A DNA stretch of 63,212 bases, counting the filler, from Reclinomonas americana ATCC 50394 (Eukaryota), in the NCBI GenBank assembly GCA_048213135.1. It is 3 parts of 3 records of this genome, joined end to end, with 100 filler letters (N's around TTAATTAATTAA, not from the genome) between each part and the next. Parts side by side here need not be neighbours in the genome. Positions count along the whole stretch, not along the records: positions 1 to 27,026 come from PS015145.1; 2 more parts are not named here. One strand, written 5' to 3'. How positions within the stretch are numbered: position 1 is the first letter of the stretch; the number at the start of each line of letters is the position of its first letter. Both the position numbers and the translations under genes were made by a program. Shown here one piece after another: positions 4,905 through 21,519 of the stretch. Below the pieces are notes generated by a model. That model saw only the letters and a list, made by a program, of their open reading frames with translations, made no database searches and was not told the origin of the DNA.

Positions 4905-7900
4905 GCATGCTCGTCACAGACGTGTTTGACCATTTGCACCGACTGTCACCGCACCCGGCGCATCCGTTGCCAGAGGGCATATCACAGGCGCCACCCGAGG
5001 TGGATCTCTTGGGTTCTTCAGACACCCACCCTGTTTCGTAGCGACTCATGTTCGTGACCGCGCACAGGCACTGGAGGCAATTTGGAATTGCATCACGCAG
5101 TTTTTCGTGTGGACCGACTACACATCGCTGTGGAGCGTGTCGGAGTGGTTGTGCCGAATAATGGAGAGGTGTGTGTGTGTGTGTGTTGATGGCGGAAGCA
5201 GCCGGTTCATTCGCGCACGTTGCTTACCTATTTGTTTTGCCTCGTGGTAGCAATCTGCTGGAGGTTTCGCTCAATTTCTCATTTGGCTTTCTCGCGTTTG
5301 GCACGATTCTGCCCACGCAGTTTCCTAAACTGCATGCGGTTTGCGTGCACCGTGCCAGTTTTGTGTCATTCGCTTGTGCCCTCTCCTTTCCAGCAGCAGC
5401 AGCTCACGATGACGATGATTTTATGTTGGCGCTCAGTGTTTGCCGTGCCGTGGCCTAGGGCGATCACGGCGCTGGAGCCAGTGGCGGACCGCATCACTCG
5501 AATCTCCATTGTGCACGAGATTCAGGCCGAGTCGCGCGCGGGTATGAGTACGGATTGACGTGACGTCTCATGACGTGCTACTTCCTCACCTTTTCTCCTT
5601 ATCATTGCAGATGGCCGCATGTTGCTCCACAATTTCCTTCCGCATTATCAGCACACGCTGACGGAACTCAATCTGAGTGGCAGCAGGATACCAGCGGTGC
5701 GTGGCATGTGTTTTCCCCCACCCCCTCTTCTTCTTCTTGTTCGAATCGTCGTCCACTAACATCACTGACGGCAGGTCGTTGTTGAGGAGTTCATGTCGCA
5801 AGCGTCGTTGATGCCTGCTCTCAAGTGTCTTCGCCTCAACGCTCCCGAGATCGCCGACGGTCCTTGTCAGTTCGACTTGGCGGCTGCCATTACCCGACTT
5901 GAGGAGCTGCAGTTCTCGGCGACACTGAAAATGGCTCGCATCGTGCCGCTGGTGGCTCCAACGCTCCTCGCGGACACACTCACACAATGCACACGACTGC
6001 GTCGGTTGACTTTGGACCGCTTCTGCAGTTGCGTTTGCCGAACATTTTTTTCTGGCTTCTCGTCGTAGCTCAGTTTTGTCGACCCAATAGGTCCGAGTGT
6101 GGCCAGGAAAATGGACGTGGTCGACGAGCCGTTGCCGTTGACGCTCTCGTACCTGTCCATGGTCGATTGTGGCGACCGAGAGGTTGGTGCTTTTCCGAAG
6201 TGCCTTGGTGGTTCGTGAATTTCACCTCTCTCTCTCTCTCTTGCAGGTGCGGTTGGCCATGCGTGCTCGCGAGTCGCTCACCTATCTGGACGTAAGCAAC
6301 AATGACTTGTCGGAGGGCGATGTGATCACCAAGCTCGCCGACGTACTGCGCGACAACACTGTACTCCAGTTCCTTGGTCTGCAAGGTTTGTGAAATACCG
6401 TGTGACGACCATCGGCAGCTGAGAGTCGTGTGTTCACCAGTTTCCGAATGCAGGCACGGGCGTGTTGAGGCGCGGGTGGTGTCCGGAGACAAGGACCTTT
6501 GTCTCCAGTCTCCAGTCGTGCTCCGCGTTGAAGCGTCTGTCGTTGATCGGTAAGCAAACAAAATGGCAGAATGAGAGTGAGACTGATGGGTGGTGCATGA
6601 TAATCTGTGTTGTCGGTGCGAGTGTACGAAGCCGCACTCGAGAGAGAGGATGGCAATGGCCGCTGAACTGTTGACTCTTTGTNNNNNNNNNNNNNNNNNN
6701 NNNNNNNNNNNNNNNNNNNNNNNNNNNNNNNNNNNNNNNNNNNNNNNNNNNNNNNNNNNNNNNNNNNNNNNNNNNNNNNNNNNNNNNNNNNNNNNNNNNN
6801 NNNNNNNNNNNNNNNNNNNNNNNNNNNNNNNNNNNNNNNNNNNNNNNNNNNNNNNNNNNNNNNNNNNNNNNNNNNNNNNNNNNNNNNNNNNNNNNNNNNN
6901 NNNNNNNNNNNNNNNNNNNNNNNNNNNNNNNNNNNNNNNNNNNNNNNNNNNNNNNNNNNNNNNNNNNNNNNNNNNNNNNNNNNNNNNNNNNNNNNNNNNN
7001 NNNNNNNNNNNNNNNNNNNNNNNNNNNNNNNNNNNNNAGGCGTTGGAGCGGGGTACGACACGTGGTCCAGCGGTCTTCTAGACGCCATCCTACAGATGCC
7101 GTCGTTGCGGCGGCTTGCTTTGAGTTGTTCGTCCGGCTCTGTTTTCTCGCACGCCCTGCGAGATAGCGTTGCTGACTCTGTGTGTCTTGTTTTGTGTAGT
7201 GGCAGAGGTTATCAAGATCAAGAAACATCCGGAGCAGAGGCGAGCCATGGAGCAGGCGGTGTTTATCGGATCCGACGAGGTCGGCGGGCCATGGGAAGAG
7301 TACTGCATCCACCGACGAAACACTCCAGTGCAGCTCACTGGTGAAGGGGTCATATCGGTGCTGCCGGCGCCTGTACTCGACGGGCTCTTGTACTCGACCA
7401 CTCGACCGTTGTACCTCCGTCTGCATGCCGACATGGTGCTTCCCGAAGTCACATGTCTGCTCGAAAAATTTGGCATCGACGGCGCCACTGTGCCATTGTC
7501 TCTGTATTGTTGCGTCTCGTTTTTTGAAAACAAAGAAGTCAATATTTGCGGTCGCTTGTCTCCTCACTCCGTTGTTTTGCCTCAGCGCGTCACGACCAAC
7601 CACCGCCGCCGGAGGAGNNNNNNNNNNNNNNNNNNNNNNNNNNNNNNNNNNNNNNNNNNNNNNNNNNNNNNNNNNNNNNNNNNNNNNNNNNNNNNNNNNN
7701 NNNNNNNNNNNNNNNNNNNNNNNNNNNNNNNNNNNNNNNNNNNNNNNNNNNNNNNNNNNNNNNNNNNNNNNNNNNNNNNNNNNNNNNNNNNNNNNNNNNN
7801 NNNNNNNNNNNNNNNNNNNNNNNNNNNNNNNNNNNNNNNNNNNNNNNNNNNNNNNNNNNNNNNNNNNNNNNNNNNNNNNNNNNNNNNNNNNNNNNNNNNN

Positions 7901-10900
7901 NNNNNNNNNNNNNNNNNNNNNNNNNAGGCGTCACCGGTTTGCCACCGGCGAGGACAGCACGGCACAGCTGGTGCTGCGACACGCAGCCAAGTACATGACG
8001 GTGGATGAGTTGGCGGGCTTTTGGCTCATTAGTCGCGGAGTCTGCCGCTTGGTGGAAACGTTGCGGCGCGCACTCGTTCTTGCGCTTGTTGTTGTTCCGT
8101 TTGTTCAAGACCCACGTCGCACACAACAGCATTTTTTCGGAGCAGCCGCGCCTGTACCACGCGCTCTCGTTCGCCATGAGCGATTCCAGTGTCCCCAATG
8201 GTGAGTTTGCGCACGTGAAGGCATCGCTGGAGTGCGGACCCGCTCACCGCCGCTGTCTCGTGACTGCCCGTACAGACTACTGCGCAGTGGTGGTCGTGAA
8301 CGAGCAGCAACGGATGCAAGTCGTCGGTCCATCACTTGCCGTCATCAACTTTGTGAAGAAGTTTGCGGTGGCTGGCGCTGTGTGGCCGGATGGCCGAGCA
8401 CGGAGTGAGCCGTCCGTGGAGGACGTGCAACTCGTCGGTGGGTGGAGTGTCGGAAAATGGTGGGAGGGAGAGAAGTGCATGTCTCACCATGATGTTATTC
8501 GTTAGTGGAGAACTGGTCGTCCGCTGACGCTCCGGTGCTTGACTTGATGCGAGTCGCGGAGACCTTTGGACCAGTGTCGTCCGTGCGCCTCTCCGTAGGT
8601 GAGTCGCAATCGGTGTGCCAGTCGTGCTTCACCCGGTGCTCACGCCACTGTCACCCAGCTCGACGTGGTGAGAGCAGTCCGTGTTCCATGGGTCGACCGT
8701 CTGCTGCCCAACTGGCCTCCCTGAAAGTTCTCCGGACCTATGGTCTGCTTTTGCACGTTTATGTAATCGTCCATTTGCACTTTCCATCTCGAAGCTGACA
8801 TGGCCTTTGCCACCGAAGGCATCCTGTTGACACCGACCGATCTGGAGCATCTCGGCACGTCTCAGTGCCTCGAGCAACTTTCGCTTGACGTCCGTTCTTC
8901 CATCGTGGCAGGTGAATGGTGTCGCGTCTCTTGTTCCCCTGCTTCGCTTTTCTCATGCGTTGACCTTGTCCTGGAAGCCGTCGCGCAACTGTGTGCCGAG
9001 TCGGAGTTGCCGAACTTGCACGAGTACCGACTCACTGGACCGGTGAGTGGTGTTTCTCAGCACTGGTGCGAGCTGCAGCGGTTTCCTCTTCTCACATTCT
9101 TTCAGTCACATGCGCTGCCGAACAAGCCGGATGCGTTAGCCCGTCGTGCACGAGAACCATTGCAGATGGTTCGCTGTACCCCCTCGCGGAAGCTCTGTTC
9201 CTCGTCTCGCTCACTCTCTTTCTTTCGGTGCGAAGACCGAGCTGGCGGTTCCGCGATTCGCTCGCCAGCTGCGTTCTCTTGTCCTTCATTCCATCACACT
9301 GGATGGTTCGACGACATTATTGGCCATCGCCGACCATCTGCGCACTGGTGCACTCACCAACCTCGACCTCTCCGGTGCGCCGCAAATCTCTTTCGCTTGT
9401 CGATTCAGTCGCTGTGCGAATGAGCTCACCACTCACTATTTTGGCGCATCGCAGGCACGCAAGCATTCAAAGATCCGTGGACCAAAGCCGACGGCATTCG
9501 CCAGTTTGCTGAAGCACTGCGGAGAAACCGGTCGCTTCAGTCGCTGAATGTCTCGGGTGCGTCGTCATGTGTATGTGTGTGGTTTCTGTTACTCGCACGC
9601 TGACACTTGTACGTGCACAAATCAAGGCACTACTCTTGGCTACGACACAGTCACTTCGCTAGGAATGGGAACAGCGTTGCTGCAGTGTTCTGCCTCTCGG
9701 GTCGACGTATCAGGTGCGTTGCACCTGAATCAGGATCTGGATGTGACCCACGTTTTGTTGACAGCTTTCTTTCTTGTGCGTGTGTGCTTGTAGGGAACCG
9801 CCTGACGCAGTGCAGATGGTGGACTCAGGTTGTTGCCCCGCAGCTGGCCAGCATGTCCCGCTGTGCGCGCACGATCACCGTGGATCGTCGAGAAGCAAAC
9901 AGCGACATTGAGCGGCTGGTGTGCACCGCCCTGTTTGACGGCGAGGACGAGGTGGACGACGATTTTGAATTGGAGCTGGCCGGCTTCGAGTCGTTCTCGG
10001 AGCAGTCAGAGGCTCGTCGCACGATCTGCAAGCATCTGTTGCCATGGTTGTCACTGGGTGATTTCATGAGGACCACTTGGCGTGCATCACGTTACATGTG
10101 CCAGATGCATGAGGAGTTGCGTTGGTGAAGAATGGAAAGAAAAGAGGGAGAGGGGGAGGGAGGGGGAGGAAGGGGAGGGAGGGCTGAGGGAGGAAGGGGG
10201 GGAGCGGGACAGGGCGAGGAAGAGGGAGTGAGAGAAAAAAGGCCAAAGAAGACGTAGAGTAGGCTACGCACAATTCCTTGCGACACGTATTCTGCAGCTA
10301 GAGTAGAGCAATTGACAACTACAAGATATCGCTCTCCATTCTTCATGCCATTGTCACAACTGTGCTACTTTCCACCTTGATATCGAGAATGTGTAATAGT
10401 TCCACTCACAGATGAATAGTGAGGAATATGAGCACGTACACAAACCCACAGGGCGGTGTTGGTGGGCCAAGAAACACACAGATTACGAGAGCAGTTGACT
10501 ATAGGAATGAGGGAAAACGGAATGACTCGTGTATGTCCATCTGTTTGTCTCTCTAATGAGAGGCTCGTAGCTGGAGACTTCTTAAATACTGCCGACTCTC
10601 ATTCTGCCTATTGGCATTTCTGCGCGCAGGGCGTTGAGTGCGGCGCAATGCATGTTGTTTGATGTCGTCAGCGGCCCCCGTGCGACGGCACCGATGTTGG
10701 AGTTGTCGTTCAACGGCGTCACTCGCATATCCGTCAGATGTATGTTGCCACGAAGTGCGTATCCTGGAGACTTCTGTTGGTGGCTCATCTTGCCTTGTGC
10801 CTTTGCAGGTTCTCTGAGTGAGGTCTTTGCCACGTTGCAACAGTGCGCTGACGAGAGCTACTGGCGTGCAATTCGACCGCCGTACTTGCCCTTGCGGGAG

Positions 10901-13094
10901 ACGGAGCCGTGCGACGGTCTTGTCGTCGCCTGTTGCGTACTCTTCATCATTTCCATAAGTACCAGTCGTGGCACATCGTCTCAACGAATGTGCAGACACC
11001 ATGTCTTCGTCGAGTGACGAGCTGCTCGGGGTCGCGCTGACGAATCCGCTNNNNNNNNNNNNNNNNNNNNNNNNNNNNNNNNNNNNNNNNNNNNNNNNNN
11101 NNNNNNNNNNNNNNNNNNNNNNNNNNNNNNNNNNNNNNNNNNNNNNNNNNNNNNNNNNNNNNNNNNNNNNNNNNNNNNNNNNNNNNNNNNNNNNNNNNNN
11201 NNNNNNNNNNNNNNNNNNNNNNNNNNNNNNNNNNNNNNNNNNNNNNNNNNNNNNNNNNNNNNNNNNNNNNNNNNNNNNNNNNNNNNNNNNNNNNNNNNNN
11301 NNNNNNNNNNNNNNNNNNNNNNNNNNNNNNNNNNNNNNNNNNNNNNNNNNNNNNNNNNNNNNNNNNNNNNNNNNNNNNNNNNNNNNNNNNNNNNNNNNNN
11401 NNNNNNNNNNNNNNNNNNNNNNNNNNNNNNNNNNNNNNNNNNNNNNNNNNNNNNNNNNNNNNNNNNNNNNNNNNNNNNNNNNNNNNNNNNNNNNNNNNNN
11501 NNNNNNNNNNNNNNNNNNNNNNNNNNNNNNNNNNNNNNNNNNNNNNNNNNNNNNNNNNNNNNNNNNNNNNNNNNNNNNNNNNNNNNNNNNNNNNNNNNNN
11601 NNNNNNNNNNNNNNNNNNNNNNNNNNNNNNNNNNNNNNNNNNNNNNNNNNNNNNNNNNNNNNNNNNNNNNNNNNNNNNNNNNNNNNNNNNNNNNNNNNNN
11701 NNNNNNNNNNNNNNNNNNNNNNNNNNNNNNNNNNNNNNNNNNNNNNNNNNNNNNNNNNNNNNNNNNNNNNNNNNNNNNNNNNNNNNNNNNNGTTTTCGTC
11801 GGTGCGTTCCCTGACTCTGCAGCCCGCGCAAGCCGATCCGCAGCAGCTGCTGGTACCAGCCGGTTCGCTACCGCACTGCGAAAGCGTGCTGATTCGAGGT
11901 ACGTTGCTCATTCGCCTGCATTGCGTGGCTCCTCCCTGCGTAGTGCTCATTCGTGGTCGTGCGCGCATGCGCAGGTTGGCAACCGAATCATAAGACACTT
12001 GGCGACGTGCCGGCCAGTCACCTGTCGTTGTCGTGGCTGCGCGATCTGCCGCTGCATAAGTTGGATGTGCGAGGTTGGTATGGCTGTGCACGCACAACGT
12101 GGTTGTCTGTGTCACTCACATCCACACTCGTTTGTATGCGCAGAATGCTCGTTGACGTGGGGCATGTCGGTGGCCCTCGCCAGTGTGCTGGCCACGCATC
12201 CGACACTGCAAGTCGTGCCGTTCCTGGTAAGTCGGTCCTGCTTCGGCACTGTTCTCGCTGGCTCGAGTCGCCGCTGACGTCCGTGTTTTCTTGCCTCTCA
12301 CAGCAGCCACCTGTGCACGAGTTTTGGACACCGACGGTCCAGCGACTTCTCCTGCCTGCCGCTCAGTGCAATCCGCACATTCAACTTGATTCGCGCAGAG
12401 ACGCACAGCGACTGGAACGAGCCATGGTGACGGTCACCATGTACCAGGATGTGTTGGAAAATGTGGAGGTGGACCTGGACCTGACCATGCCGCTGCCTAC
12501 GGAACTGGTCGCGTACGAGATATTGCCGTTCCTCGGCTCGCACGCCACGCCTCTGTGGCGAGTGTGTCGTGCATTCGGCGCCGCTCTCACGTTGCGTGTT
12601 TTGTTAGTTGTTGCTTCTGAAGCCGCAGGGGATGCTCACTCCCTCTTGCACACTGCAGCATTGTTCGCGACTCGAAGAAGCTAGGCACTCAGCTTGCTCG
12701 TCAGATCCAAGCCGCCGAGAAGGTTCACAAACCACTCGGTCGAGGCAAGAAGCGCTCGGCTAGCGGCACTAATCCAGGGGAGGAGCGCGCATTGCCAGAC
12801 AACACACCGACAGAGACGACGCCGGGTGCTCGTGTCGCCAGATTTGTATCGCGTCGCCGTCCCGTATCACCACACTCTGCTGCTGCGGCACTGTCTCGGC
12901 GTGCCGCACAACTACAACACCTTCAGCAACCGACGCAACCACCGCCGCAGCAGCAGCAGGAGGCGGCGGATATGCTACCCATCTTGTTCCCTGAGTATGA
13001 CCTGGAGCCCCCAATGGACCGTCGGACGGTTGCAACAGCAGCAGCCCCCAGCGGACACGATGCAGAATTGGCATGCCCGCCAGATCACGAGTAA
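4905..13094 (+). CDS. Very large multi-exon protein with four F-box-like motifs alternating with RNI-like leucine-rich repeats (three assembly gaps inside)
   Basis: LRRs: ESLTYLDVSNNDLSEGDVITKLADVLRDNTVLQFLGLQG; IADHLRTGALTNLDLSG; QFAEALRRNRSLQSLNVSG. F-box-like: PPEALEAIWNCITQFFVWTDYTSLWSVSEWLC (about 4990-5168), LVLRHAAKYMTVDELAGFWLISRGVC (about 7970-8059), ICKHLLPWLSLGDFMRTTWRASRYMC (about 10020-10115), LPTELVAYEILPFLGSHATPLWRVCRAF (about 12490-12590); low-complexity tail to TAA at 13094. Confidence 0.6.
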
Positions 13095-13173: not shown

Positions 13174-14775
13174 TCATTCGCGTGCACTCCGCGCGGCTGC
13201 GACCGTGGCTGCCATGGCGGCGTGTGCCGAGTGCACGATTTGGACCTTGACCTTGTCCTCGGCGGACACTGGTTCATCGTCCAGAGTAGTAACTTGAAGC
13301 ACGACGGCGAGGATCTGGCGGGGGTAGGGCGAAGAACATCAGTCGTCATCGAAACGGATGGGAAGAGAGGGGAGGGAGGGAGGGGGAGGGAGGGAGGAAG
13401 GGGAGAATAGCAGACTACCAAGGTCACTAGCGAAGAGTGCAATGCCGGAGGAGATCAATCATCAAAAGCAGTTTGGGAATGAAGTAAACTCGTGGAATGA
13501 CGAGCTCGAGAGTGAGAGTGTAAGAGGGTGATAGAAAGAGGAGGGGAGGGAGGGGAAGGGAGGGAGGAAGGGAGAATAATGCAGACTCCCAAGGTCGCAG
13601 AAATGCGAGCAGCTTCACCAGTGAAGAATACAATGCCGGAGGAGACATCAGTCATCAAAAGCAGTTTGGGAACGAACTAAACTCGTGGAATGATGAGTTC
13701 GAGAGCGAGAGTGTAAGAGGGTGATAGAAAGAGGGAGAGAGGGAGAGAGGGAGGGAGGGGAGAGGCAAAGATGGCGAGAATAATGCAGACTCCCAAGGCG
13801 CAGAAATGTGAACAGCTCGACAAGCGAAGAATACAATGCGGGAGGAGACATCAGTCATCATCGAAAGGGAAGGAGGGAGAGAGGGAGAGAGGGGAAAGGA
13901 AGAAGGAAGGGGAGAATAGCAGACTCCCATGCCACGTCCAAGCCACGTGAGTGAAGAATGCACTGCTGTCTTCATAGCAACGCACTCCCACACCCTGCTA
14001 CAAACAAACCCTCACCTTGTGTCTGGCCTGCTCAATCTCTTGAATTGGATTCTCCATCAATCTGAGCGACGACAGGTCGCGCAGGTAGCTGAGCGGCTGC
14101 AGAACGGCCGGATCGGCAAACCTAAGTAGCGGTGGTGAGTCTCGCGTCACCAGGCACTCTCTATTTTACAAGAGCGCGACACAACTTGTTGTGTGAAAAG
14201 TCAGCCGACGACAGGCACACCACGCGCTCGAGACTCTCCGCACTCGCAATCTCATTGTGCGACGCATCCAGCACCTCCAGTTGCAACAGCGACCCGATAT
14301 CTCTCGTGTGTGTGAGTGCATTGTGGCTCTGCGGGGCGCGCGGTGAGATGCGAGCTATTCAGCGGTCACTGCAACGCCACACGGCGGAGACGCAACAACG
14401 TCGAGTCTGCGCACGGAGAGGTGTCGAATGCCGGGCAACTCGGTCAACTGATTGTGCGAGACATTGAGGTCGGCCAGCGCCGTGAGAGCGTGCAGGCTCG
14501 GCAGCGTGGAGAGCGAGTTGAAGGAGAGGTCCAGTGTCTGCAAAAAGTGCAGTGTCGGCGGCACCTGCGTGATCTCGCGGATCTGGTTGTGCGCGAGAAG
14601 CGCCTGTTGGAGAGTGTCGGGCACGGCCCAGTCGCCGGGAAAGGTCTCTGCACACCAAGGCCGGAATAAGCAACGACATAAGCAGTAGAGCAGGGAGGGA
14701 GAGCCTCACCGAGTCGATTGTGAGACGCGTCAAGCACGCACAACTGGCGCAACGGCGACAAGGGCGCCAAACTGT
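13174..14775 (-). CDS. LRGUK/LRRC23-like SDS22-class LRR protein, central and C-terminal exons
   Basis: LAPLSPLRQLCVLDASHNRL; LQQALLAHNQIREI; LQTLDLSFNSLSTL; LEVLDASHNEIAS; LRR cap LRLMENPIQEIEQARHK|ILAVVLQVTTLDDEPVSAEDKVK resembling LRGUK; TGA at 13174-13176. Confidence 0.7.
13360..13930. repeat. Degenerate intronic tandem repeat, about 140-210 bp, 3-4 copies
   Basis: gggagaata(at)gcagactcccaagg...aatgccggaggaga(c)atcagtcatcaaaagcagtttgggaa recurs at about 13402, 13570, 13776 and partly at 13911. Confidence 0.85.
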
Positions 14776-15575: not shown

Positions 15576-16408
15576 ATGGGAAGGGTTGCGAGAGTGGAGC
15601 GGGGGCACTTGTCCTTTTTCCGCATGTCACGCACTCCTTCGCTCACTCACTCACTCACGCGTGCACAGCGGCAAGCGGTGATTGCACTGGTGGTGTTGTT
15701 GGTGGTGGCGGTGGTGAGCGTGTCGGCTGAGGAGCCGCAGCTGGCGGTCTTCAAGAACCTGCAGCAGTCGTTGCGTCCTCCTAAAGAGCAGAGAGTGTGT
15801 GCGAGTGTGAGTGGAGACTGACAATGTGTCTCGCGCGCAGGTACGCTGTGCAGGGTGGTGAGGTGGTGATCAACTTCCAGATCTACAACCTGGGTGATGG
15901 GTTGCGTCTTCAATTTTTCCCTCGCTTTCTCGTCCTTGACCGCATGTTGTTGTCATGCTCACACTTGTTTCTGTGCACATTAGTGCTGCTCATGACTTCA
16001 AGCTGGAGGACACTGCGTACGAGAGCGACAACTTTGATGTCGTCTACGGCAAGCGCACGGCCTCGTTTGAGAAGATCCCGGCGTTGCGTTGCTTACAAGA
16101 GTGCTCATGAATGAGTGTTTGTGCGTGTGTGCTCACAATGCGGCCTGTGCAGTGGTTCCTCCGTGTCGCACACGCTGGTGCTGAAGCCCAAGACCACTGG
16201 CCGTTTCAACGCCGGCGCTGCCACGTACACGTACCGCGCGGGCAAGAAGACTGTCGTTGCGTGTTCGAAGGAAGATGGGATGCTTTGCCATGTGCGTATG
16301 ATTCATTGACGGTGGTGATCCTGCTCGCAGTCTGGCCAGTCAACTCAGGCTCCCCTCCTCGAGATTGTGAACCAGCGCGACCATGAGCGTCGCTCCGCCT
16401 CGTTCTAC
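15576..16408 (+). CDS. SSR2: Translocon-associated protein subunit beta (TRAP-beta), exons 1-6
   Basis: MGR|RQAVIALVVLLVVAVVSVSA-EEPQLAVFKNLQQS|YAVQGGEVVINFQIYNLGDG|AAHDFKLEDTAYESDNFDVVYGKRTASFEKIPA|GSSVSHTLVLKPKTTGRFNAGAATYTYRAGKKTV|SGQSTQAPLLEIVNQRDHERRSASFY, colinear with TRAP-beta; six GTTGCG donors. Confidence 0.93.
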
Positions 16409-17064
16409 GTTGCGTTTTTTTTTTGGTGGCTCTTCANNNNNNNNNNNNNNNNNNNNNNNNNNNNNNNNNNNNNNNNNNNNNNNNNNNNNNNNNNNNNNNN
16501 NNNNNNNNNNNNNNNNNNNNNNNNNNNNNNNNNNNNNNNNNNNNNNNNNNNNNNNNNNNNNNNNNNNNNNNNNNNNNNNNNNNNNNNNNNNNNNNNNNNN
16601 NNNNNNNNNNNNNNNNNNNNNNNNNNNNNNNNNNNNNNNNNNNNNNNNNNNNNNNNNNNNNNNNNNNNNNNNNNNNNNNNNNNNNNNNNNNNNNNNNNNN
16701 NNNNNNNNNNNNNNNNNNNNNNNNNNNNNNNNNNNNNNNNNNNNNNNNNNNNNNNNNNNNNNNNNNNNNNNNNNNNNNNNNNNNNNNNNNNNNNNNNNNN
16801 NNNNNNNNNNNNNNNNNNNNNNNNNNNNNNNNNNNNNNNNNNNNNNNNNNNNNNNNNNNNNNNNNNNNNNNNNNNNNNNNNNNNNNNNNNNNNNNNNNNN
16901 NNNNNNNNNNNNNNNNNNNNNNNNNNNNNNNNNNNNNNNNNNNNNCCCAATTCTTATGTAACGCGTCCATCTACACTCCCGTTGAGTGACTTCGTCCCAT
17001 CCAGCACACCAGCATGTGAACCAGCAGTGCAGAAAGGGCGACCAACCAACCAAAAAAAGCCACA

Positions 17065-17479: not shown

Positions 17480-17800
17480 TGTCTGACTCAGCTGACGGAG
17501 AAGATCCACTGTACAACGCGGCAACAGACGGGTTAGCTGACGGAGAAGAGCCACACTGCAACGCAACAACAACTGAGTCAGCGTATGGAGAAGAACCCCT
17601 CTGATTCAGATCCGAACTGCAAAGAGCCCCTCTGCAACGCGACATCAACTGAGTCAGCGTATGGAGAAGAACCACTCTGCGACGCGACATCTGCACTCAT
17701 AGTCTTGCTGAGAAGAACCCCTCTGCAACGCGGCAGCAACTGAGTCAGCTGATGGAGAAGAACCACTCTGCAGCGCGGCAGCTGACAGAGGAGCTCAACC
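17480..17800. repeat. Degenerate 45-bp minisatellite, about 7 units
   Basis: Unit approximately actgagtcagctgatggagaagaaccactctgcaacgcggcagca. Confidence 0.85.
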
Positions 17801-19693: not shown

Positions 19694-21519
19694 TCACATG
19701 TCGTCGTCGTCTGCTGCTGCAGCAGCGGCTAGCTCCTGGAGCCGGGCAACGACTCGCCGCTCTTCCGCGCACCACATCTCGTACAGGCGACGCATGACGT
19801 CGTCTGTCAGCGGTGCCTTGCAGTTGTACACCCACGGTTTCTGTGTCTGTGTGCATGCTTGGCGGTGAGCAGCAGCAACGACAACAATGATGACAACAGC
19901 AGCGGCGTGGTGCAATCGCAGTCGAGTACGCAACCACATAGTAGTGCACCACGGCGAGGTTCTCCCACGACCACACCCCGCGCTTCAGCATGTCGTCGGC
20001 GCGCGTGGGCGTGACTCCGTAAAAGTGCGGCAGGCCGAGCCACCGGCGGCCCTTGATTTTCTCCAGCACCGCCACCAACACGCCTTGTTCGCCCCATCGC
20101 ATGTACATGGGGTCGGTGGGTGATCGGAACCACTGCACAAACTCCTGGTACAGCGGCATCGACGGCTGTGCCGTGAAGATGCCCGAGTTCAAGCCGCGGT
20201 AGCTCGCACCAAATGTGTCCGACAGATCGTGCGCGAAGCTGTTGGCGGGGAAGAAGAAGAGCAGGTCCACGTGCCTCACCGGCAGCGTGTCGAGGTCGAG
20301 GTACACGATCTTGTCGTACTGCGTCAGTCGGTACAGCTCCAGCTTGTGGATGCACACGATGCAGCCTTGGAGCCTCGAGTGGTTGGTGTGGTTGCCCTCA
20401 AAGGGCCCCGTGTAGTGGAAGATCACGCCGAGCTCCCGCAGAAAGGCCCTCTCCGTCGCAGTGAACACCGGCAGCACCTTGTCTTCGATGCTCTGCGGCG
20501 AGGCCACCAGCAGTGGAATGTCGGGATAGTCGCTTGCCGCTCGCAGTGCCGAGGCAAACACAAAGAGACCGCGCTTGATGTTGTCGATGGCGGCCGCGTT
20601 GCTCGTCTCTGGAACCAGCAGATAGGTGACCCACGCAACACGACCACGCAGGTAGCTTGGGCGCTCTGTCGTCGTCGTCGTTGTCGTCGTCGTCGTTGCT
20701 GGCTGCGTCGGCAAGGGCGGTGGAGGTGGTGGCACCGGCAAGGGTGCTGGCTCAAGGACGGGAGGAACGTGCGAGTTGACAGGCTGGTGGGGAGTTGTGA
20801 GTCGCTCACTCACTCACATGGAGAAGGCGCTGCGGTGTACCTTTTCAGTCTTCGCTGGCTCCTTGAATCCCTCCGCGGCAGGTTGCTGCGCAACGTAACA
20901 ACGTGAGGGAAACGAGGCGACAAAGGGCACAGGAGTTGCAGACTCACCGGCGGATCCTCCTGCTTTGGAGCCGATCCATCGTCACTCGCCTGTCACTTGA
21001 CGGTCAGTCATACATCGCATTCTTTGCCGCACACAACCGCACCTTGCGCTGCAACAACACATGATCGTGAGCACAAGACCACCGGTAATACCACAACGAC
21101 CAATGAGTGTACCTTTTCATGATCACTATCCTGCTGCGGGCTGGACACCTCGGCCACAGTGGCAGGTGGATCCGTTGCCCCGCTCGGACGATCAGTTGTG
21201 TGCTTGTCGACGACCTATCAATCAATCATGCATCGTGAGCGATGACGGGTGCGCCGAGCGATCGGTCGCTCTCACCTCCTCTTCTTCACAGATTGTCGGT
21301 GGCGGCACTGGTGGGCACTCGCATTCCTGGGCCTCACACACGCGTCAGAGACAATCACGGCCACACACACAACATCGAACCCGTGATTACCGGACAAGAT
21401 GCACTGGCAGTGATTCTGTCGCTTGCCTGTGGCCGGTTGCTGAGCTGCACGAGCATGGCTGAGCCAAGCACCGCGGCGACGATGCACGCGATCAGAACCG
21501 TGCGGCTGTTGAGCTCCAT
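19694..21519 (-). CDS. Type II membrane glycosyltransferase, family GT8 (glycogenin-like)
   Basis: N-terminal anchor MELNSRTVLIACIVAAVLGSAMLV; Pro/Thr stem; AWVTYL, KLELYRLTQYDKIVYLDLDTL (DxD), NSGIF, GEQGVL, VVHYYV|TQKPW; internal stem exons uncertain. Confidence 0.88.

Follow-up and report, generated by a model that had tools for sequence, protein, structure and literature searches.

A GTTGCGT class of splice donors and a variant U1 predicted to read it one base downstream in the Reclinomonas americana assembly

Why should the introns of a single gene begin with two different words, apparently according to the base that ends the exon before them? The question arises in a 63,212-nucleotide (nt) window, the whole stretch of DNA analyzed here, from the assembly GCA_048213135.1 of Reclinomonas americana ATCC 50394; only window positions 1–27026 lie on contig C137 of this assembly, which we call G000. 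On the plus strand, at positions 5068–13094, hand-built models outline what is probably a single long gene, rich in introns, that contains four F-box-like motifs as well as leucine-rich stretches, and each motif is followed by an intron that opens either with a canonical G|GTNNGT donor or with a donor of the form GTTGCGT. The original prediction treated the four junctions as a natural experiment, in which a switch of donor (canonical after G, shifted otherwise) recurs after every motif. We think it likely that these are four ordinary spliceosomal GT–AG introns and that GTTGCGT donors constitute a second class, read by a predicted variant of the U1 small nuclear RNA (snRNA) that is shifted by one base. 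The donor switch itself stood up as a tendency; its likely cause, a second U1 snRNA, had gone unnamed.

The donors lie where they had been placed, with AG|GTGTGT at 5169, AC|GTTGCGG at 8060, GA|GTTGCGT at 10116 and AC|GTTGCGT at 12591, as read in the sequence. All four introns are in phase 2 in the frame of their motifs. Counted from the conserved Trp, they split codon 12 after motifs 1–3 and codon 11 after motif 4, matching the predicted spacing of 11–12 codons. Frame-keeping acceptors are found at 5250, 8129, 10629 and 12658; the hand-built models run free of stops over 5068–6549 (7 introns) and 7926–11050 (14 introns, 560 codons) and stay open until a stop codon over 11823–13094 (4 introns). 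Frame alone is insufficient to choose among donors, as stop-free GT–AG alternatives, such as 10098 and 10125, exist at every one of the four junctions. When nearby GTs were ranked with matrices trained on dynein and chaperonin introns, however, each of the four donors scored best (of 15, 6, 28 and 11 GTs, respectively). The intron after motif 1 (5169–5250, 82 nt) opens canonically with G|GTGTGT, and its allele carries a 4-nt deletion immediately 3′ of the donor. The other three are shifted: C|GTTGCGG after motif 2 (8060–8129, 70 nt), with G instead of T at +7 and with allele insertions inside the intron; A|GTTGCGT after motif 3 (10116–10629, 514 nt); and C|GTTGCGT after motif 4 (12591–12658, 68 nt), across which the frame extends to the stop at 13094. 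The same gene has a further shifted donor, A|GTTGCGT, in a stop-free model with no motif before it (6028–6090), and an exception, a canonical T|GTATGT after T (10740–10808, hand model). Over the hand model of the gene, all 20 introns that follow G are canonical and four of the five that follow another base are shifted.

The assembly behind the window comprises 108 Mb in 16,441 contigs, represents two haplotypes and includes no fewer than two contigs of bacterial origin, and the same link between donor and exon end is observed across it. We aligned ten dynein heavy chain loci and 13 chaperonin loci with four reference proteins each, using a spliced aligner that has no donor matrix and allows GT or GC to AG at a flat penalty. 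Junctions were kept when at least two references agreed, the flanks were free of gaps and at least 3/8 were identical, which reduced 704 candidates to 181, and to 177 introns once four from a second allele had been removed. A GTTGCG donor follows none of the 139 exons that end in G and 25 of the 38 that end in A, C or T (Fisher p=3e-21), making the class about one in seven, or ~14%, of introns. The rule is therefore a strong tendency with exceptions both ways: 13 of the 38 non-G exon ends are followed by canonical donors, although a few of these junctions may be misplaced, and GTTGCG donors also occur after G, so it is not a strict switch. Beyond +1 to +6, which are fixed by definition, the 25 shifted donors have T at +7 in 24 cases and show no bias from +8. 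Their introns otherwise resemble canonical ones, with a median length of 73 versus 72, similar acceptors and the branch motif YTSAY in 20/25 versus 130/152.

The class is also visible without alignment. In 484 kb, we scored words for a branch site plus CAG downstream, for which the background is ~0.15: GTTGCGT preceded by A, C or T had them in 130/227 cases and GGTTGCGT in 13/25, compared with 102/236 for GGTGCGT and 94/564 for GTGCGT preceded by A, C or T. Genome-wide counts are 45,257 for GTTGCGT and 25,281 for the same word reversed, so that roughly 20,000 occurrences over the two haplotypes are in excess. Shifted introns are cut before GT, not between G and TT: GT...AG ends restore the protein frame in the 25 homology-anchored cases and in a TRAP-beta-like gene, and at the four flagged junctions by open frame. 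A cut at G|TTGCG was rejected, as it took none of 204 junction calls when TT donors were allowed. Positions +3 to +6 of shifted donors differ between alleles in 0/72 comparisons versus 31/360 in intron interiors (p=0.005); at canonical donors the figure is 20/320. Between dynein paralogues, no intron position mixed the two classes, in a comparison limited to 8 shared positions for each of two references, too few to bear on class switches. The TRAP-beta-like gene (15576–16415, plus strand) is an extreme case, in which all six donors seen begin GTTGCG, two of them after G (15585 and 15901). It is stop-free once five introns are removed, moving each donor by +1 introduces stops, and Pfam TRAP_beta positions 50–81 and 83–114 match consecutive exons. 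Six of six donors, set against 14% per intron, suggest that the class clusters in some genes.

Two kinds of U1 gene are present. The canonical one, on C343, has the 5′ end AUACUUACCUG and matches Rfam with 63.7 bits. The other, found as two alleles on C429 and C479, has the 5′ end AUACGUAACUU, differs in its 5′ arm by U5G, C8A and G11U, and matches the U1 family over model positions 1–166 (E=2e-14, 64 bits). It retains the U1 fold, the GAUCA and UGCAC loops, the Sm site and the last stem, and its alleles are identical over 154 nt at loci that are 97.9% alike (p about 0.04 given the flanks). Upstream of it, at −66, lies the word CCCACAA, which also occurs at −62 to −72 in U2a, U4, U6, U11 and U6atac (6 of the 9 genes inspected, against a background of 0.4% per 25 nt); in U2b the word differs by one base, and a weak U12 match and a rejected U4atac candidate are without it. 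A GTGAC-like word near −35 in several snRNA genes may form, together with CCCACAA, a candidate snRNA promoter. Both U1 contigs look like host DNA, as their 4-mer make-up correlates with that of C137 at r=0.95, compared with about 0 for the bacterial contigs. A U1 pattern search gave four matches, three of them copies already known, and among eight matches to the variant-U1 pattern in metagenome contigs none was a U1 by Rfam.

Positions 3–9 of the variant are complementary to GUUGCGU (with one G–U pair) when C9 stands opposite G+1. On shifted donors, the variant forms on average 7.8 pairs in the +1 register versus 2.2 in the normal one, and canonical U1 forms 5.4 versus 3.9. Mean predicted duplex energies on the 25 shifted donors are −9.1 kcal/mol for the variant and −0.4 for canonical U1, whereas on the 139 canonical donors after G they are −3.5 and −7.3. 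For the flagged donors, the values with variant and canonical U1 are −7.9 versus −1.7 kcal/mol at 8060 and −10.4 versus −1.4 at 12591.

We propose that canonical U1 would read the common class G|GTNNGT, with the last G of the exon paired to its C9, and that in an expressed variant U1, C9 would pair instead with the first G of the intron, placing the helix one base downstream. All seven U1 pairs with a GTTGCGT donor would then lie within the intron, and the exon end would be left unbound, which would explain why such donors are used mostly after A, C or T. On this scheme, C9 would always face a G, the last base of the exon in one class and the first base of the intron in the other. The next step would most likely fall to the single canonical U6, which could pair with G+6 and U+7 if one extra base were absorbed.

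Several observations weigh against this proposal. We found one U6 type, in three copies with a canonical ACAGAGA box, and no second type in G000; in its normal register, this U6 makes no Watson–Crick pair with GUUGCGU at +4 to +7, and one base along it makes the two just named, G+6 and U+7. A second departure from the usual scheme would therefore be needed. The available text of PMC11162779 presents its own −1 case as the first description of an alternative U6 register; routine use of +1 by U6 would thus be unusual in itself. The available text of PMC11732430 further indicates that U1 need not set the cut site, and the link between variant U1 and donor is one of complementarity, not of suppression. 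Both U1 matches fall under the Rfam gathering score of 69.5. G|GTGCG donors pair almost equally with the variant (−5.4 kcal/mol) and canonical U1 (−6.4), so the division of labor between the two may be leaky. The 177 introns represent two gene families and count one probable allele pair (L117 and L118) twice, and the filters removed at least one G|GTTGCGT donor, through the gap filter. In this gapped assembly, where failure to find a component does not imply its absence, the protein U1-C was not found; nor was U5, by family or loop pattern, and a Rfam search for U4atac was blank, few candidates having been scored in these searches. The best complement-based U4atac candidate was dropped, with no Rfam match and no upstream element. 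As a separate observation, two divergent U2 types, one at C14:162841-163039 and the other on C409 and C371, share the branch-pairing sequence GUAGUA.

Other explanations could be offered for one junction or for the whole class. At motif 3, the gene might simply stop at the TGA at 10126–10128, or splice from a nearby G|GTGAAG donor at 10125. The original prediction that the 10116 donor removes this TGA and joins in frame to 10630 is borne out insofar as the stop lies within the modelled intron and the frame is open into 10630, but donors at 10098 and 10125 are in frame as well, 514 nt is long for an intron of this genome, and the exon at 10630–10739 has no family match and carries 7 substitutions in 110 bases between alleles. 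The TGA is preserved in the allele, which does not discriminate between the readings. Even so, donor 10116 scores 12.8 and the next of the 28 GTs only 4.6, its intron sits at exactly the same position as those after motifs 1 and 2, and the acceptor at 10629 requires some donor. The intron, which also encloses dispersed repeats, has 11 insertion or deletion events between alleles over 410 aligned bases compared with none in both flanking exons. It continues from its donor with a purine fraction of 0.93, as in long introns (0.63–0.97 in all ten long homology-anchored introns, against a mean of 0.41 in short ones). A stop or another donor here thus seems unlikely to us, and the 10115/10630 junction is likely real, though no more than likely because of the retained TGA and the 7/110 substitutions. 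For the class as a whole, one might suppose that shifted reading of GTTGCGT is the work of canonical U1 or of a protein, and that the variant U1 has nothing to do with it or is a pseudogene. Ordinary U1 does read rare shifted sites in humans, as the available text of PMC4856993 describes, and canonical U1 could form about five pairs here, but the predicted mean duplex is just −0.4 kcal/mol and the changes at 5 and 8 in the variant mend exactly both mismatches. Its intact structure, upstream element and allele identity speak against a pseudogene, and we give this explanation little chance. Still less probable, in our judgment, is an origin from intron-generating transposons, with a fixed 5′ end that all members of the family would have inherited from a common ancestor. 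Such a family would fit the near-invariant 5′ word, insertion at exon ends without AG|G context, the absence of a junction repeat in 14/24 shifted versus 8/149 canonical introns and the few intron positions common to dynein paralogues (8/161). However, shifted introns are no more alike beyond the word than canonical ones (mean pair score 14.1 among 22 versus 13.7 among 60), have no inverted ends and fewer junction repeats, match canonical introns in length and acceptors, and keep the GTTGCGT word under present constraint between alleles. An ancient transposon origin of the class remains compatible with these data.

A further possibility involves the minor spliceosome. G000 contains a U6atac at C392:96657-96788 (allele C1225:15887-16016), with 37.8 and 34.9 bits, above the cut-off, in which the box reads CACCGA where the Rfam consensus has AAAGGA. 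It is the only U6atac found; a conventional second one was not seen in a search in which 11 of 30 two-mismatch candidates were checked. The assembly also has a U11 with a conventional 5′ end and a weak U12 match (26.5 bits, under the cut-off), at C5:310867-310991, C8:46150-46280 and C9488:1884-2037, and at least 159 matches to conventional U12-type introns versus 12 in the control. Under a U6atac–donor pairing scheme that we assume by analogy with U6, the altered box makes three of six pairs with the conventional U12-type donors of this genome, and in the normal register it pairs with C+5 and G+6 of GUUGCGU. One could therefore envision a hybrid spliceosome, in which GTTGCGT introns are marked by the variant U1 and U2 and then handed to a re-tuned U6atac. 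In its favor, the sole U6atac found carries the altered box, which keeps half of its pairs with minor donors and gains one at G+6; its two contacts, at +5 and +6, coincide with positions that U6 pairs in canonical donors; and besides the missing second U6atac, introns with the TATCGG donor that would match the altered box did not rise above control (35 versus 52). Yet the conventional U12-type introns require a U6atac, and the only one found therefore has another job. A consensus-type box would likewise form two pairs with GUUGCGU, U+7, a base fixed in 24/25 shifted donors, no longer finds a partner in the altered box, and +8 and +9 are without bias (U in 8/25 and G in 7/25). The shifted class also lacks the marks of U12-type introns, as its donor is GTTGCGT rather than RTATCCTT, and a TCCTTRAC branch site near the acceptor is not typical of it, the motif being of the major type in 20/25; one TCCTTGAC lies within a shifted intron of the TRAP-beta-like gene, upstream of a CTCAC site. 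We regard the hybrid as improbable and favor reading by the variant U1 followed by canonical U6.

Returning to the gene itself, motifs 3 and 4 end exons that extend a preceding leucine-rich stretch, and 5068–13094 is therefore probably one long gene rather than four, predicted across gaps at 6683–7037 and 7618–7925 and at its 5′ end. In the allele on C175, almost nothing is left of the 741-base gap at 11051–11791, which shows that gap lengths in the assembly are unreliable; by eye, a donor at 11031 carries the frame across this gap. By translation, motif 1 ends the exon at 5068–5168 and motif 2 the exon at 7926–8059, which begins at an assembly gap; in the hand model, motif 3 follows the end of a leucine-rich stretch in the exon at 9794–10115, and motif 4, by eye the most F-box-like, lies in that at 12304–12590. 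The F-box label itself was not confirmed. Pfam returned no family for seven segments, a search that may be weakened because the motifs stop at the intron, and none of 36 genome-wide F-box-like matches at E<=0.1 lay on C137 or its allele. Atlas, to which only motif 4 was submitted, gave by language-model likeness a lead with a score of 0.89, in a cluster that is 58% F-box, and a further score of 0.86, both below the lead threshold of 0.9. Inspection by eye of 20 of those 36 F-box-like loci showed no fixed intron 11–12 codons after the Trp.

The motifs nevertheless bear on whether the four junctions are independent. When anchored at the intron, motifs 1–3 resemble one another, with scores of 34, 17 and 14 that only 0.07–0.23% of 13,041 control pairs reach; motif 4 is barely like the others (3–14% of control pairs reach its scores), and outside the motif no likeness among the four modules was better than E=0.025, module 1 having been run with a wrong second acceptor. 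The three shifted donors may go back to a common origin if the motifs are copies; otherwise, the introns lack homology. Homology is probable for the introns after motifs 1–3, and a single change of donor class would account for the pattern. The junctions are thus not the independent repeats that had been claimed: they illustrate the donor rule, offer no independent test of it and are weak as a natural experiment. In other F-box-like genes (L180 and L186), A|GTTACG and A|GTTGAG, noticed by eye, may be variants of the shifted donor; donors of this type showed no enrichment in the alignment-free count.

The host is probably a jakobid, on the basis of one partial gene. The closest named match of a chaperonin alpha exon by identity is Seculamonas ecuadoriensis (79%), and in a quick tree of 33 rows a 176-residue chaperonin piece groups with Seculamonas (support 91; 100 for the clade with one further protein), next to Stygiella (support 91). 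A search for eukaryotic 18S ribosomal RNA (rRNA) returned only bacterial rRNA, with the same limits of a gapped assembly and few candidates scored, and does not imply absence. Contigs C1 (2.3 Mb) and C2 (2.1 Mb) are bacterial by rRNA match, intronless chaperonin and different 4-mers, and may come from a co-cultured or symbiotic bacterium. Long introns open with a GA-rich tract (10/10; for example 10126–10250 in the window, L096–L097 and L128), and several close with a CT-rich tract that could pair with it and so shorten the intron. By eye, the intergenic parts of the window also hold short, degenerate direct repeats, with three long copies at 13350–13930 and some seven copies of a unit of approximately 42 bases at 17480–17790. 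On the minus strand, a long exon at 19960–20640 resembles, by eye, a glycosyltransferase family 8 protein.

Overall, the system would work like the shifted register known from humans, though it is far more frequent and has a U1 gene to match. It resembles a natural, genome-scale suppressor-U1 experiment, in which a second U1 gene carries the two changes needed for a one-base shift and would serve about one intron in seven. The system could make testable how the cut site is set when U1, and apparently U6 too, is out of register, and whether a class of introns can belong to an snRNA paralogue of its own within the major spliceosome, something that has proved difficult to demonstrate for vertebrate U1 variants. 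It also suggests a route by which introns could exist at exon ends without G, and gene predictors with a single donor model would mis-annotate such genomes. The available text of PMC10639083 reports no evidence for minor introns in Discoba; as the host is probably a jakobid, its U11, U6atac, weak U12 match and conventional U12-type introns would add that group to those with minor splicing. Were the hybrid true, it would be a third kind of spliceosome, joining major recognition to a minor catalytic RNA for thousands of introns per haploid genome, in a lineage without reported minor splicing.

Human 5′ splice sites read by U1 in a +1 shifted register were reportedly described by Roca and Krainer in 2009. 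Non-canonical U1 registers together make up 1.5% of human sites, according to the available text of PMC11162779. As far as PMC4856993, PMC11162779 and PMC9311317 were available, the human +1 register is alike in that U1 pairs one base downstream, the cut falls before GU and the donor resembles the consensus with one base inserted; there, however, ordinary U1 does the reading, whereas here ~14% of introns share a near-fixed word, a link to the exon end and a separate, compensating U1 gene. In the main text of open-access papers, we found no report of a GTTGCG donor class, of jakobid U1 variants or of a jakobid U6atac. The preprint bioRxiv 10.1101/2022.06.08.495308, in the part available, describes U1 5′ ends that co-evolved with unusual donors in Entamoeba (AACAAAC) and Mastigamoeba (ACGUAC), the latter by the same change as U5G here; in those cases the modified U1 fits the main donor in the normal register, whereas here canonical U1 is kept and C8A shifts the register. 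Two U1 types per genome are likewise described for Physarum polycephalum in the same preprint and for Sulcionema specki in PMC12621601, but the available parts link neither to a shifted donor class, and in Sulcionema both types are comparable on the canonical site. The AG//GU and NN//GURAG classes of PMC11732430 also divide into one that leans on the exon end and one that leans on the intron; as described in its available text, however, they overlap, share one U1 and register and differ in U5 versus U6 pairing, whereas the shifted word here is discrete. Finally, U12-type introns likewise combine a rigid donor and a free exon end with an snRNA of their own for the 5′ site, but with other donor and branch motifs and with U11 instead of U1, and the two kinds coexist separately in this genome.

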